The position numbers were made by a program, and so were the translations under genes. Shown in pieces: positions 26,258 through 32,169 of a stretch of 64,000 bases of DNA (position 1 is the stretch's first letter; every line of letters begins with the position of its first letter). Under the pieces are notes generated by a model that was not told the origin of the DNA, ran no database searches, and worked only from the letters and a program-made list of their open reading frames with translations. Source of the DNA: Escherichia phage E26; the sequence record MN655998.1; one strand, 5' to 3'.

Positions 26258-26485
26258 TTATAGTTGATCAGCAATGTATGCGGTGCATTTGCGGAGTTTA
26301 GCCATAGCACCACCTTTCATGTCGCTTACGCCTACAATGTTCATGATCTCTAAGCGATCAGCCGGATTCAGTCTAGTAGCCCAGATCTGGTTAGCCAGTT
26401 CCATTTTACCCATCTGCGGTTCCATCTCAAACAGTTCGCGCTCAAAGTCGATAATTTCTTTTGCTGCGTCTTTAAAGTTAATCAT
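26258..26485 (-). CDS. hypothetical small protein
   Basis: ATG at 26485 preceded by GGGAGAATCAAA leader. Confidence 0.45.
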   Translation of the reverse strand: MINFKDAAKEIIDFERELFEMEPQMGKMELANQIWATRLNPADRLEIMNIVGVSDMKGGAMAKLRKCTAYIADQL

Positions 26486-26737: not shown

Positions 26738-26783
26738 AATTTGATTCTCCGTTTAAGAAAGTGTGTTTCGTTTCGATGGGTGT

Positions 26784-26812
26784 ATTATGCTATAGGCCGG
26801 ATCTGGTGTCAA
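26784..26812 (-). promoter_or_regulatory. sigma70-type early promoter (TTGACA-N17-CATAAT)
   Basis: -35 at 26807-26812, -10 at 26784-26789; spacer contains GATC. Confidence 0.6.
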
Positions 26813-26837
26813 CAACTTTTTTAAAAAAATTTTAGGC

Positions 26838-26866
26838 AATAAAAAAGCCACTCCGAAGAGTGGCTT
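26838..26866 (-). terminator. rho-independent terminator
   Basis: Hairpin AGCCACTC-TTCG-GAGTGGCT followed by U-run on minus strand. Confidence 0.7.
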
Positions 26867-27015: not shown

Positions 27016-27234
27016 TTATTTATATCGCTTTCTCTCGCGACGTTTTTGATCTTCTTCCTTGATAGAGTTAAACGCATCAAAAAGACACATGACACTGATA
27101 ATGAACATAACCGTATTTTCTACGATATCCCACGGCTTCGCATCAGTACAGATCCCCCAAACGGTAAGAAATGCAAATAATGCAGAAGAGATCACAAGCA
27201 TGATACTTGCTAAGATATAAAAAGTCATTTTCAT
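27016..27234 (-). CDS. small hydrophobic membrane protein
   Basis: 72 aa, two hydrophobic helices and basic C-terminus; ATG overlaps upstream stop (ATGA). Confidence 0.4.
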   Translation of the reverse strand: MKMTFYILASIMLVISSALFAFLTVWGICTDAKPWDIVENTVMFIISVMCLFDAFNSIKEEDQKRRERKRYK

Positions 27235-27413
27235 GGTTTTACCTCAATTCTTCGATATTCATCACACATCCACGCAGTAAGCAAGAATCCCAACACATAA
27301 GCAACAAAATACGTTAATGCTTCTTCTGGTTCCGTGCTATGTATCATCAGTAAACCAGCGAGAACAGTCTTAATAATTACATTTAAAATAATTAGCCACG
27401 CAAATAGTTTCAT
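27231..27413 (-). CDS. small hydrophobic membrane protein
   Basis: ATG at 27413 overlapping upstream stop (ATGA). Confidence 0.4.
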   Translation of the reverse strand: MKLFAWLIILNVIIKTVLAGLLMIHSTEPEEALTYFVAYVLGFLLTAWMCDEYRRIEVKP

Positions 27414-27634
27414 CGTATACCCCATTTCGGTCGAGTCTTTTCAAACTTATACATTCCGTAACAATCTAGAATCATCCACGTAACAAGAGCACCAGTCAAC
27501 ACAGACAACACACAGAAGAAGTAAAACGGTCCGGTTGCATTATCAACATGAGCAAGCCATGTAAAGAATACACATGCTAAGAATGTAAAGAACATCATAA
27601 AACACAAGAAAGCAAAATATTTTATGCTACTCAT
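27410..27634 (-). CDS. small hydrophobic membrane protein
   Basis: ATG at 27634 with GGTGG RBS; hydrophobic. Confidence 0.4.
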   Translation of the reverse strand: MSSIKYFAFLCFMMFFTFLACVFFTWLAHVDNATGPFYFFCVLSVLTGALVTWMILDCYGMYKFEKTRPKWGIR

Positions 27635-27741
27635 AGCGCCACCATACAACAAATCATAAGAAACCCAAACGCAATTAGAATTGCATCAAATTTAGTGAAC
27701 TCAGGTCCACCTATCAACATCATTCGTTCTATTTCGTTCAT
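27631..27741 (-). CDS. very small hydrophobic ORF (about 36 aa)
   Basis: ATG at 27741 overlaps upstream stop and its stop overlaps the next ATG; below ORF-track size cutoff. Confidence 0.3.
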   Translation of the reverse strand: MNEIERMMLIGGPEFTKFDAILIAFGFLMICCMVAL

Positions 27742-27935
27742 AGCGTACAAAGCCATTTAAAAGCACCACATAAAGCGAGCAGAATACTAGGTATAAACGA
27801 GACCATAACAAGTTTGCAAAAATCATCTAAGGTAACACCGGAATAGCTACCTACTGTAACAACACCGATCATCAGACACAGAAAGAAAACAAATGCAATC
27901 ATAAACAAAGTATTGCTAAACAGTTTAGTGATCAT
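27738..27935 (-). CDS. small hydrophobic membrane protein
   Basis: Hydrophobic; probable ATG at 27935 with GTGGGG RBS (longer alternative starts at 27977). Confidence 0.35.
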   Translation of the reverse strand: MITKLFSNTLFMIAFVFFLCLMIGVVTVGSYSGVTLDDFCKLVMVSFIPSILLALCGAFKWLCTL

Positions 27936-28128
27936 TAGACACCCCACGACGATCAATTTCAAAAACTTTTTTACCATCAACGAAGCATGTCACAACTGCC
28001 TCGTTGACTTCCGCAAATTGTTGTGTTACCCACTTAAGGTCAGAGCGAAACAATGTTCTATTAATAACAAATGTTTTACCGCTCTTATCCTTACCCATAA
28101 ATTTTGCTTTAACCATATCAAATTCCAT
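27925..28128 (-). CDS. hypothetical small protein
   Basis: ATG at 28128 with AAGGTGA RBS. Confidence 0.45.
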   Translation of the reverse strand: MEFDMVKAKFMGKDKSGKTFVINRTLFRSDLKWVTQQFAEVNEAVVTCFVDGKKVFEIDRRGVSNDH

Positions 28129-28137
28129 ATTATCACC

Positions 28138-28295
28138 TTATTTGCTAATCGCTAAACCCAATCCGAAGAGAGCACCCGACGCTACAGTATACCCGAAAGT
28201 TTCAAATGCAGTAAAGATATCCAACCCACCAGCTAACAGAGTTGCAGTAAACAGAGTACCAGCTACGAACATAAAAGTTTTACCGATAAATTTCA
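28138..28295 (-). CDS. small hydrophobic membrane protein (52 aa)
   Basis: ATG at 28295 behind AAGGAGAATCAAG leader and promoter; below ORF-track cutoff. Confidence 0.45.
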
Positions 28296-28327
28296 TCTTG
28301 ATTCTCCTTTCGTTTGTTTGTGGGGGT

Positions 28328-28356
28328 ATCTTACTACCCCCGTTTCATGTTGTCAA
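28328..28356 (-). promoter_or_regulatory. sigma70-type early promoter, -10 inside a hairpin loop
   Basis: TTGACA (28351-28356) N17 TAAGAT (28328-28333); GGGGGTA/TACCCCC stem. Confidence 0.6.
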
Positions 28357-28363
28357 CTATTTT

Positions 28364-28741
28364 TTAAGAATATTTTACTTCGTCTACAATGTCTTTCATG
28401 ACATTGATTTCCATTCCGGTCAGAACACGTTGGAACATGTGCTGCACATACGCTTTCAGGTATTCATTTGATGGCTTGCTATCGAAAGTCTTTTTAGTGT
28501 AGTAGTCATCACCGAAAGCTACTGTAATTACATTTTCGTCGTCGTTCCAAGCGATATAAGCAAATTTGCCGTTATCCCAGAAGCGAGCACTAATTGCTAC
28601 TTTTGTTGAATCGAATCCTACTTCGCTGTGAGATTCAAGAACTACTTGCGTACCAGTTTCTTTATGAATGTAGTAGCGGGATACTAAGTCAAAGTTACGG
28701 GTGTAGTGACATTCGAATTTATCTTTAAACATCATCATCAT
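28364..28741 (-). CDS. hypothetical protein
   Basis: ATG at 28741 behind AGGAGAATCAAA leader; track start lies further upstream. Confidence 0.5.
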   Translation of the reverse strand: MMMMFKDKFECHYTRNFDLVSRYYIHKETGTQVVLESHSEVGFDSTKVAISARFWDNGKFAYIAWNDDENVITVAFGDDYYTKKTFDSKPSNEYLKAYVQHMFQRVLTGMEINVMKDIVDEVKYS

Positions 28742-28778
28742 TTTGATTCTCCTAAGTGTGTTTCGTTTCGATATGTGC

Positions 28779-28807
28779 ATTATGCTATAGTAGTTTATGG
28801 TTGTCAA
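28779..28807 (-). promoter_or_regulatory. sigma70-type early promoter (TTGACA-N17-CATAAT)
   Basis: -35 at 28802-28807, -10 at 28779-28784; preceded by terminator hairpin. Confidence 0.65.
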
Positions 28808-28808
28808 C

Positions 28809-28841
28809 ACCTAAAAACAAAAAACCCCGAAAAATTTTCGG
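28809..28841 (-). terminator. rho-independent terminator after 57B/Acb1
   Basis: Hairpin CCCCGAAAA-TTTTCGGGG followed by long U-run on minus strand. Confidence 0.7.
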
Positions 28842-28850
28842 GGTATAAAA

Positions 28851-29315
28851 TTACAGTTTGGTCGTCCACTCCAGGTCTAGATCTTCGACATACTCATGAG
28901 ATCGGACAATCTCTAAATCAAACTCTAGGTCAGTGCCAAATTTACGCGCACCAACATCATAAGAAAGCGTGATATGCGGTACATATTCAGGATAATCCCA
29001 CGTCGCACCTAAAGCAGTGCCGATATCGTGTCTGAATTGCATGTAGTCGCTTTCAAATGCCAGCACAAGCGCATTAGTACCGGATTGAGTTTCAAACACT
29101 TTCAGATGGCATAGAGAGCCTAAGAACTTCTCCCCTTCTTCTGGGATAAACGGAACATAGACACGAGAATATAAGATAGTGCTATGCAGTTTATCACGAG
29201 GAACAGCATTAGGCAGATCGTAAAACTCCTGCAATTTTTCAATGCGGTCTAGTGTATCCTCAGTGAATTTAACCGCAGCATATGTACCTTTAACGGATTC
29301 TCGAAACGGGGTCAT
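28851..29315 (-). CDS. 57B: 2H phosphoesterase, Acb1 (gp57B)-like anti-CBASS cyclic-oligonucleotide phosphodiesterase
   Basis: Two H-x-T/S motifs (LHSTI and PHITLS) of the 2H fold; sits downstream of 57A and gene 1 as T4 57B; ATG at 29315. Confidence 0.65.
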   Translation of the reverse strand: MTPFRESVKGTYAAVKFTEDTLDRIEKLQEFYDLPNAVPRDKLHSTILYSRVYVPFIPEEGEKFLGSLCHLKVFETQSGTNALVLAFESDYMQFRHDIGTALGATWDYPEYVPHITLSYDVGARKFGTDLEFDLEIVRSHEYVEDLDLEWTTKL

Positions 29316-29317
29316 AA

Positions 29318-29578
29318 TCAAGCCTCCGTGATCAGTTCTACTTCCTCTTTAGCGTCTTCCGCTGCTTCGTCTTTAGGGAGAAGTGCTTTCACTTCTTCGA
29401 CAATAGCATCAAGGGAAACAGTCCCGTTTTCGTCTGGCTGAATACCCAGAATGCGTACCAGTTCCATCAATACACGCTCACGATCTTTCAGTTGGCCTTC
29501 TAAGAATGCGGCCTTTTCTTGAGTGTCAAACAGACGTACTTTCAGGACATTAATCATTTGTTCATGCTGATTGGACAT
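29318..29578 (-). CDS. 57A: tail fiber assembly chaperone gp57A
   Basis: 86 aa coiled-coil with acidic C-terminus, next to gene 1 as in T4; ATG at 29578 with AGGAG RBS. Confidence 0.65.
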   Translation of the reverse strand: MSNQHEQMINVLKVRLFDTQEKAAFLEGQLKDRERVLMELVRILGIQPDENGTVSLDAIVEEVKALLPKDEAAEDAKEEVELITEA

Positions 29579-29610: not shown

Positions 29611-30267
29611 TTAAATGTTCGCGAGAATCGCGCTTTCAAATTCTTCTAATGTACCATTATTTATGATAATGGTTTCACCGTCAATAGGCAAAATTCCTTT
29701 TTCGGTGGAGTGAGTCGATACAATACCAGTATCACGCTGAATATGCAACACCTTAGCACCCATAGCACGCATAAGAGCAATTTCAATAGGCTGACGCACA
29801 TCAACCACTACAAAATACCCTTCTTCATTTTTGCGCTTCATAAACTCATTCACGAAGAGATTACACCAATAAAGCGGATTGATCAAGTTAACCATTATAT
29901 CAGTACCGAGAGTGGTTAACATGAGACGAATAGACCAGACGTTATTATGTTTTTCGCCGATCTCATTAACGACCTTGTAAATCTCAGCCAGACTATCACA
30001 AGTAAAGGAACTACCGCCATACTTCGAATCTAGCATAAGCAGACACTGAATAAACCACTTATGCGCGGTATAGGTATCAATACCTAGATCGGCTTCTCTG
30101 TCACGCCCTAACCCGTCAAAGTCAAGATAAGTCAGACCTAAGTCTGGTTGACATTCGCATAAGATTTCTTTGATCGGTGCTGCCAGTTGATAACTGTGTC
30201 CATCAATGATTAACGCGGCAGTGTCTTTTCCTACTCGCTTTTTACCACAAAGTGCAATCAATTTCAT
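29611..30267 (-). CDS. 1: deoxynucleoside monophosphate kinase gp1
   Basis: P-loop GKKRVGKDT and overall similarity to T4 gp1 as recalled (RLM..LGTD, YW..LF). Confidence 0.85.
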   Translation of the reverse strand: MKLIALCGKKRVGKDTAALIIDGHSYQLAAPIKEILCECQPDLGLTYLDFDGLGRDREADLGIDTYTAHKWFIQCLLMLDSKYGGSSFTCDSLAEIYKVVNEIGEKHNNVWSIRLMLTTLGTDIMVNLINPLYWCNLFVNEFMKRKNEEGYFVVVDVRQPIEIALMRAMGAKVLHIQRDTGIVSTHSTEKGILPIDGETIIINNGTLEEFESAILANI

Positions 30268-30282
30268 AATATAAGCCTCTTA

Positions 30283-30873
30283 TTACTTTCTAAAAGCAGG
30301 ATGCATAGCTTTAATTCCTTCCACTCGCTGACGATCCGCCGCCTGAATTGCAGGGCGAGGAACGATCAGCTGACCATCACGTTCAATGCTCATCGTTTTA
30401 AATGGAAGAATTGCAGTACACACCAGAGATTCATGCATATCATCGGTGTATGTTAACTCAAGTTCCCCCAATTGTGAACACCAACAACCATAAAAGTTAA
30501 AAGTGCACACAATGTTACGGCGTTCGTTGTCCATCATGTGAACTTGAACGGCTTCCGGCATTGAATCCTTCCACGCTGTGGAGTTACCGTTATTGTAGTC
30601 TACTATAGAAAGCATCCATGTGTAAAGGTTTAGATAGCTTTCCAAATGCTCATCGACAATAAACCGGACTACCAACGGGTCAAACTCTACATGACTAGAC
30701 GGATAATCAGCTACTGCCAAACCATATTGACCAGCAACTTGTTTAGTCGGTGGAATGGTTATAGCCGGAAGTGTAACACCTTGACAGTTTAAAGTAAAGC
30801 CTTTTGTTAGTTGACCATCTGGAATGGCAATCTGCCAGTTGCTGGGGTTAGCATAGTTAAAGAGATTAGACAT
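30283..30873 (-). CDS. 3: tail tube terminator / tail completion protein gp3
   Basis: Assigned by synteny (between gene 1 and gene 2) and size (196 aa). Confidence 0.6.
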   Translation of the reverse strand: MSNLFNYANPSNWQIAIPDGQLTKGFTLNCQGVTLPAITIPPTKQVAGQYGLAVADYPSSHVEFDPLVVRFIVDEHLESYLNLYTWMLSIVDYNNGNSTAWKDSMPEAVQVHMMDNERRNIVCTFNFYGCWCSQLGELELTYTDDMHESLVCTAILPFKTMSIERDGQLIVPRPAIQAADRQRVEGIKAMHPAFRK

Positions 30874-31062: not shown

Positions 31063-31317
31063 ATGACAGAAGACATTTTGTTAAAACTCTATGATCGTTT
31101 GGATAACGAATTGGCAACATTGCGGGGTGAAGTTCTCTATTTGTCTAAATGCAATACAGATCTGCTTAAGCAGATTGCAGAAAGGGATGATCAAATAAAA
31201 TCCCTTTCAGGTGCATTACGTGATCGCGACAAGGCATTAGAGATTTTACAGCGTGTTACCAATAAGGAAGAATTAAAAGACTTCTTACATGGTTATGCTC
31301 ATGCCATCGATCTATAA
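31063..31317 (+). CDS. hypothetical coiled-coil protein encoded opposite to flanking late genes
   Basis: 84 aa ORF with GAGGA RBS, heptad-like hydrophobic pattern, followed by a hairpin terminator. Confidence 0.45.
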   Translation: MTEDILLKLYDRLDNELATLRGEVLYLSKCNTDLLKQIAERDDQIKSLSGALRDRDKALEILQRVTNKEELKDFLHGYAHAIDL

Positions 31318-31347: not shown

Positions 31348-32169
31348 TTATGCATCCTTCCAAACTTTCCTTGCGTCGTATTTCTTGCCTTTTGACATAA
31401 ACTGATATGTAGGCATATAGATAATATTGCTCCAGTCTTTCGGGCTAATCTCAACAAGTTTTGTTTTAATGTGTCCCGGTAGATATGCTTTGATCATGTG
31501 GTCACTACCACGCATACCTTTTACATCGCTCCATTTGATTTTTAAGCGTGTTTTATTGCTCAAGGTAGGAGTAGATGCATATTGCTTTAAAAGTGCCTCT
31601 AAAAACTGCTGACGGGCTTTAGGAGTTACATAGTGTAAGTTAAGACCCAGCATCACAGTATTACCCGCCTTTGTCTTAGAATCACCCAGACAAATGATCA
31701 GCGGGAAAACATCCCAATATGGCAAAGTGTCTTTATACTTAGCATCATACATAAAGGTATAGATTCGCCCTACTTGCGGTTTTACAATCTGGTGTCCCTT
31801 TATTCCAGCTTTTATTGTTTTAGTAAACCACTCCTGTGATTTTTCTTTAGGACGACTCTTTGATACAGCACGCATAGACGCACGAAAATCATTAATCATC
31901 ATCATTGCGCGTTGCTGCTTATTGAGACCCTTTGCGCCTTTCCCTTTTAGTTTTTCAACTTCTATTGCTGTTTTAATTTCGCTGGCATAACGAGACATAC
32001 TTTTAGTGAAAGTCGCATAGGCTATTCCCTTAGAATCTGCAAATGCTTTAGCTGTCATGCCTTTGGCTTTTGCCTTCGCAAATTCTACACCCAATTCGAC
32101 CCACTGTTTAGACTTTCGTTTTTGGGGAGACGGCTTTTCGTCTTCTGTGATTATTTCAAATACGCTCAT
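31348..32169 (-). CDS. 2: DNA end protector protein gp2
   Basis: Assigned by synteny (between 3 and 4) and size (273 aa). Confidence 0.65.
   Translation of the reverse strand: MSVFEIITEDEKPSPQKRKSKQWVELGVEFAKAKAKGMTAKAFADSKGIAYATFTKSMSRYASEIKTAIEVEKLKGKGAKGLNKQQRAMMMINDFRASMRAVSKSRPKEKSQEWFTKTIKAGIKGHQIVKPQVGRIYTFMYDAKYKDTLPYWDVFPLIICLGDSKTKAGNTVMLGLNLHYVTPKARQQFLEALLKQYASTPTLSNKTRLKIKWSDVKGMRGSDHMIKAYLPGHIKTKLVEISPKDWSNIIYMPTYQFMSKGKKYDARKVWKDA

Follow-up and report, generated by a model that had tools for sequence, protein, structure and literature searches.

In phage T4, the cGAMP-degrading activity of infected lysates was shown to be Acb1, the product of gene 57B, and the "RNA ligase" label attached to the protein is a legacy of its superfamily (PMC9117128). 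The catalytic HxT/HxT tetrad of the T4 enzyme is formed by H44, T46, H113, and T115 (H44A/H113A is inactive), Y12, W74, F107, and W147 are the base-stacking residues, E141 contacts adenine N6, and residues 145-152 make up the C-terminal lid (PMC9117128). In Hobbs et al. 2022 (PMC9117128), all of the nine further Acb1 homologues tested were active, the substrate range and the roles of the residues were defined, and vB_EcoM-G2494 was included in the lysate screen. Two crystal structures represent the closest solved relative, Acb1 of Erwinia phage FBB1, one apo (7T26) and one with 3'3'-cGAMP (7T27); we assigned the PDB sequence to FBB1 by tblastn. In RB49, gene 57B has been annotated since the original record. 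Both the gene and the family described below are thus already known, the family having been characterised in 2022 and given its own Pfam entry. A literature search for papers with both "Acb1" and "RB49" in the main text returned none.

The DNA analysed here is a stretch of 64,000 nucleotides of Escherichia phage E26 (MN655998.1), referred to as the window. The source genome is a Krischvirus (RB49-like) one, and in RB49 coordinates the window begins near position 32,099. The 5.5-kb stretch around acb1 is 97.5-98.7% identical to 57 Krischvirus-group records, with phage ELT4 as the best match and RB49 at 97.7%. An intact copy of acb1 is present in 58 of 58 Krischvirus-type records, in 55 of them at an amino-acid identity of at least 99%. 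The protein of the window is 100% identical to RB49 gp57B (AAQ15381.1) and shares 153 of 154 residues with Acb1 of the RB49-type phage vB_EcoM_G2494.

An initial annotation, made from the sequence without database searches, had placed an open reading frame at 28851-29315, and the ORF listing gives exactly those coordinates from an in-frame ATG at 29315 to a TAA stop (28853..28851). The mechanically delimited frame is slightly longer (28851..29321, minus strand), as it opens at a TTG (29321) two codons before the ATG. Because a GGAGG motif precedes the ATG by 7 nt, within the end of gene 57A, and because the 57A stop codon (29320..29318) falls between the TTG and the ATG, the ATG is preferred and is the likely start. 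Comparison with the RB49 counterpart revealed 11 nucleotide differences, every one of them synonymous: ten fall on third codon positions, and the other is a Leu CTG/TTG exchange. That all 11 are silent in the 57B frame identifies this frame as the coding one and shows purifying selection. The ORF is real. The same pattern rules out two overlapping frames, at 28706..28972 on the plus strand and at 29120..29242 in another frame of the minus strand, as mechanical. The features of the locus are collected in Table 1.

Table 1. Positions of acb1, its functional motifs, and the neighbouring features in the window.
Feature	Position	Strand	Basis or remark
Gene 2	31348..32169	minus	Family scans of neighbours
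Gene 3 (tail completion / tube terminator)	30283..30873	minus	Pfam gp19-like E=1.8e-7, PHROG 45 E=8.4e-44, RB49 annotation
Gene 1 (dNMP kinase)	29611..30267	minus	Pfam DNMK E=3.5e-68
Gene 57A (tail fibre chaperone)	29318..29578	minus	Pfam GP57 E=2.9e-6, PHROG 1002 E=7.9e-26, RB49 annotation
Shine-Dalgarno GGAGG	29323..29327	minus	Sequence reading; upstream of acb1 ATG
acb1 (gene 57B) CDS	28851..29315	minus	154 aa, TAA stop included; ORF list, Pfam, PDB, RB49 match
First catalytic motif H44-S45-T46	29178..29186	minus	Aligns with T4 H44/T46 and FBB1 HTT
Second catalytic motif H114-I115-T116	28968..28976	minus	Aligns with T4 H113/T115
C-terminal lid segment E144...W150...L154	28854..28886	minus	E144 = T4 E141, W150 = T4 W147 by alignment
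Intrinsic terminator-like stem-loop (ACCCCGAAAATTTTTCGGGGT then TTTTTTGTTTT)	28824..28844	minus	Terminator scan; 6 nt past acb1 stop
Strong sigma-70-type early promoter TTGACA-17-CATAAT, 11/12	28779..28807	minus	Promoter scan; boundary, not part of acb1
ORF125c (RB49 name)	28364-28738	minus	PHROG 15253, function not assigned
ORF124c (RB49 name)	28138-28296	minus	PHROG 16462, function not assigned
dmd (antitoxin against RnlA/LsoA toxins)	27925..28128	minus	Pfam Dmd E=1.5e-14

The protein is a member of the Acb1 family. It matched the Pfam profile of anti-CBASS protein Acb1 (PF23474) with E=1.5e-51 and 174.4 bits against a cut-off of 27, with protein residues 9-152 spanning profile positions 1-143 of 144. 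Among PDB chain sequences at E≤1, the sole match was FBB1 Acb1 (7T26/7T27, E=1.8e-43), to which residues 10-153 align on positions 2-143 of 144, so that 142 of the 144 residues of the structure are covered, the lid segment included. These two matches and that to PHROG 755 (E=1e-54) go far past what chance would give. Identity amounts to 52-53% with FBB1 Acb1 and to 47-48% with T4 gp57B (BLASTP E=3e-47); an NCBIfam scan of the protein matched no family. Since the AlphaFold2 model built from the single sequence was uninformative for the fold (pLDDT 37.5, pTM 0.36), the assignment to the 2H fold rests on identity to the solved FBB1 structure, by which a compact 2H fold with a C-terminal lid is strongly implied. 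The ORF had initially been called an Acb1 (gp57B)-type 2H phosphodiesterase, a reading that both the full-length PF23474 match and the sole PDB match support. With a probability of about 0.93, we take it to encode the Krischvirus (RB49-type) orthologue of T4 gp57B, that is, Acb1, predicted to act as a small metal-independent 2H phosphodiesterase.

Alignment with T4 and FBB1 Acb1 showed the catalytic tetrad to be intact as H44, T46, H114, and T116. The two H-x-T/S motifs reported in the initial annotation are those at H44-S45-T46 and H114-I115-T116, and the histidines that it singled out for comparison with T4 Acb1 are conserved, as are the threonines. All four residues, together with Y12 and E144, proved invariant across eight aligned sequences whose identity to the window protein spans 27-52% (the window protein, T4, FBB1, the Acinetobacter, Aeromonas, Vibrio, and Klebsiella phage orthologues, and a Pseudomonas phage domain). 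The base-stacking aromatic residues (Y12, F74, Y108, and W150) and the adenine-reading E144 are all kept, and at these five ligand-contact positions (Y, F, Y, E, W) the residues agree with those of FBB1 Acb1, which was crystallised and is active. The one structural novelty against T4 and FBB1 is an insertion of two residues at 133-134, just ahead of the last strand and the lid.

Some of the more distant homologues differ in architecture. The Acb1 homologue of the Slopekvirus Klebsiella phage vB_KpnM_05F (L006 2459-3082) has a C-terminal extension of ~55 residues and is without the lid tryptophan, and its lid or its regulation may differ. In Pseudomonas phage psageK9, gp70 (L007 1052-2854) is a protein of 600 amino acids with an Acb1-like 2H domain, including both HxT motifs, at its C-terminus, and its gene adjoins the terminase gene; gp70 would be the nuclease fused to a larger, possibly virion-associated, protein.

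By analogy with the characterised T4 and FBB1 enzymes, we infer the catalysis, substrate range, and in vivo anti-CBASS effect of the window protein as follows. During infection, it would bind 3'-5'-linked cyclic di- and trinucleotides with at least one adenosine (3'3'-cGAMP, cUA, cAA, cAAA, and cAAG) and hold them in a U-shaped pocket over which the C-terminal lid closes, with the bases stacked on Y12, F74, Y108, and W150 and with E144 reading adenine N6; the substrate range that characterises the family does not include cGG or cA4. The adenosine would be strained such that its 2'-OH attacks the adjacent 3'-5' phosphodiester bond, and the H44/T46/H114/T116 tetrad would provide metal-independent acid-base catalysis. 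A 2',3'-cyclic phosphate would form as the intermediate and linear 3'-phosphates as the products. Once the second messenger is gone, effectors of CBASS, and perhaps also type III CRISPR effectors that depend on cA3, would stay inactive. The earlier view that this phage most likely carries the counter-defence function of Acb1 is in line with the family, the residues, and the genomic position.

The make-up of the pocket also bears on what the target of the enzyme would be. A protein of the Acb1 family might have its main target outside CBASS, either because it acts on the cA3 of type III CRISPR or because the Krischvirus-specific two-residue insertion has shifted its specificity. Acb1 does degrade cA3 in vitro, cA3 being also a signal of type III CRISPR and Panoptes (PMC13577387), and the insertion, which sets the protein apart from both T4 and FBB1 Acb1, is placed ahead of the lid; yet at every position known to determine specificity, the residue is that of the active FBB1 enzyme. 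Nothing in the sequence indicates a different pocket. Furthermore, CBASS is common in E. coli and type III CRISPR is rare there, which counts against a target outside CBASS, and we give such a target only a slim chance.

The weakest of the readings concerns the family itself. The PHROG profile scan matched the protein to PHROG 755 (E=1e-54), which is named "RNA ligase", as is the orthologue in many RefSeq records, and Pfam returned partial, sub-threshold matches to 2_5_RNA_ligase2 (19.4 bits against a cut-off of 27, E=0.0011) and LigT_PEase (14.1 bits against a cut-off of 23.3, E=0.057). A LigT/ThpR-type RNA 2',3'-cyclic phosphodiesterase or 2'-5' RNA ligase, engaged for example in tRNA repair with phage Pnk and Rnl, would share the 2H fold and the HxT/S motifs, but it is slightly less probable still, given that both LigT-type matches stay below the curated cut-offs and take in ~20-57 residues around the second motif only, that the Acb1 model matches over the full length, that no LigT, ThpR, or CPDase structure was matched among PDB chains at E≤1, that the base-stacking residues and the lid specific to Acb1 are conserved, and that the T4 orthologue is the cGAMP-degrading activity, with "RNA ligase" a legacy name (PMC9117128). 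The closest homologs are therefore not RNA-repair enzymes of the LigT type, the case named in the initial annotation as speaking against Acb1: the Acb1 model scores 174 bits and the LigT-type models 14 and 19 bits.

The genomic position of the gene agrees with its assignment to Acb1. In the window, the genes are ordered 2–3–1–57A–57B, as they are in T4, and the same order was found in four other Straboviridae genera, represented by Acinetobacter phage Mokit, Aeromonas phage AsFcp_4, Vibrio phage K571, and Klebsiella phage 05F. Gene 57A is located directly upstream of acb1, with its stop codon 2 nt before the acb1 ATG. The conserved 57B-57A-1 position proposed from the sequence thus stands, the same-strand neighbours having been recognised as 57A, 1, and 3 by family scans. 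Between genes 3 and 2, an ORF of 84 amino acids is inserted on the plus strand (31063-31317; RB49 ORF130w, PHROG 17832, function not assigned), which is oriented against the block around it and is not part of the T4 gene order.

On the downstream side, the GC-rich stem-loop that follows the acb1 stop codon has a CCCC...GGGG stem and a T-run, and the annotation of phage G2494 shows a terminator equivalent to it. Given this terminator, acb1 and 57A probably share a transcript, on which acb1 would be the final gene of the 3-1-57A-57B block. The T4 late-promoter motif TATAAATA was found nowhere upstream of genes 3, 1, 57A, and 57B on the minus strand, and its window-wide count was at the level of chance. 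Transcription of 57A-57B could start from a sigma-70-like site within gene 1 (29684..29656, 10/12), which is no more than a consensus match.

The sigma-70-type promoter beyond the stem-loop is predicted to restart transcription into the downstream variable region. Cassettes of this kind, a stem-loop with an early promoter, have been described as PeSL for RB49 and phi1 (PMC2839356), and by its sequence the pair that follows acb1 is a PeSL-type cassette. The promoter and leader (28754-28790) are 92% identical to 26759-26795, 2 kb downstream, where the copy has its own stem-loop. PeSL-type cassettes were also observed at 26784-26866 and 28328-28356, both on the minus strand, flanking small genes downstream of acb1, and a 16-nt RBS/start motif (the reverse complement of ATCATTTTGATTCTCC) occurs three times, at 26481, 28292, and 28737.

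With acb1, the conserved core block ends, and the gene adjoins a hyperplastic region with ORF125c, ORF124c, and dmd. ORF125c and ORF124c are lineage-restricted ORFans between acb1 and dmd, the former being restricted to the 58 Krischvirus-type records. ORF125c gave no Pfam match above threshold (best gp30.7, E=0.004) and only chance-level matches in the PDB; its position makes it a candidate anti-defence gene. The dmd gene lies ~0.7 kb downstream of acb1, whereas in T4 dmd (annotated synonym 61.5) is found elsewhere in the genome, and this closeness suggests that Krischvirus has a small cluster of counter-defence genes. Further along, five very small, strongly hydrophobic ORFs of 41-80 amino acids (27016-27980, minus strand; RB49 ORF118c-122c) overlap end to end and look like small membrane proteins. 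The whole 64-kb window contains no tRNA genes and no Rfam families at the gathering score. A tblastn search of the window and of two RB49 segments (1-50 kb and 95-164 kb) for a homologue of T4 Vs.4/Acb2 gave only noise, at the low sensitivity that goes with a small and divergent family. Broader scenarios can be drawn from this arrangement, namely that Acb1 is the sole cyclic-oligonucleotide countermeasure of Krischvirus and that the adjoining region, shuffled through PeSL cassettes, would be an exchangeable anti-defence island with ORF125c and ORF124c as new counter-defence genes, or else that the insertion would shift the substrate range of Acb1; we regard them as unlikely, if less so than the alternative functions weighed above.

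The Acb1 of RB49-type coliphages is intact and maintained by selection, and these phages are, as a consequence, predicted to resist CBASS signalling with adenosine-containing cyclic di- or trinucleotides. They are also predicted to be sensitive to guard systems that sense when such nucleotides are lost; type II Panoptes restricts T4-like BASEL phages whose acb1 is intact (PMC13577387). The acb1 result itself opens no new question. Its practical use is in re-annotation, as many records still give "RNA ligase" or "hypothetical protein", and in the choice of phages for therapy or for studies of defence systems.

Compared with T4 Acb1 (gp57B, NP_049750.1), the window protein aligns over the full length with two small gaps only and shares the HxT/HxT tetrad, Y12, and the counterparts of E141 (here E144) and W147 (here W150), and its gene likewise directly follows 57A on the same strand of the 2-3-1-57A-57B block. 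The T4 protein is 152 amino acids long, against 154 here, and is without the insertion at 133-134. W74 and F107 of T4 are replaced by F74 and Y108, both still aromatic and both as in FBB1. While 57A and 57B overlap by 4 nt in T4, here they are 2 nt apart, and in place of ipI and then a tRNA cluster downstream of 57B, the window has the PeSL cassette, an ORFan confined to Krischvirus, and dmd, and it contains no tRNAs.

The LigT/ThpR 2H phosphoesterases (PF02834, PF13563) have in common with the Acb1 family the two HxT/S motifs and metal-independent transesterification via a 2',3'-cyclic phosphate. In contrast, they act on RNA ends rather than on cyclic oligonucleotides and are without the aromatic cage and C-terminal lid of Acb1; the window protein matches both profiles only in part and below threshold and has no PDB match among them. 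FBB1 Acb1, from a phage of another host genus, is far closer, with all four catalytic and all five base-contacting residues identical, although the crystallised chain is without the 9 N-terminal residues and the two-residue insertion. The nearest counterparts of all are RB49 gp57B and the other Krischvirus orthologues: in RB49, the flanking genes are identical, and acb1 itself differs from the copy in the window by the 11 synonymous nucleotides only.
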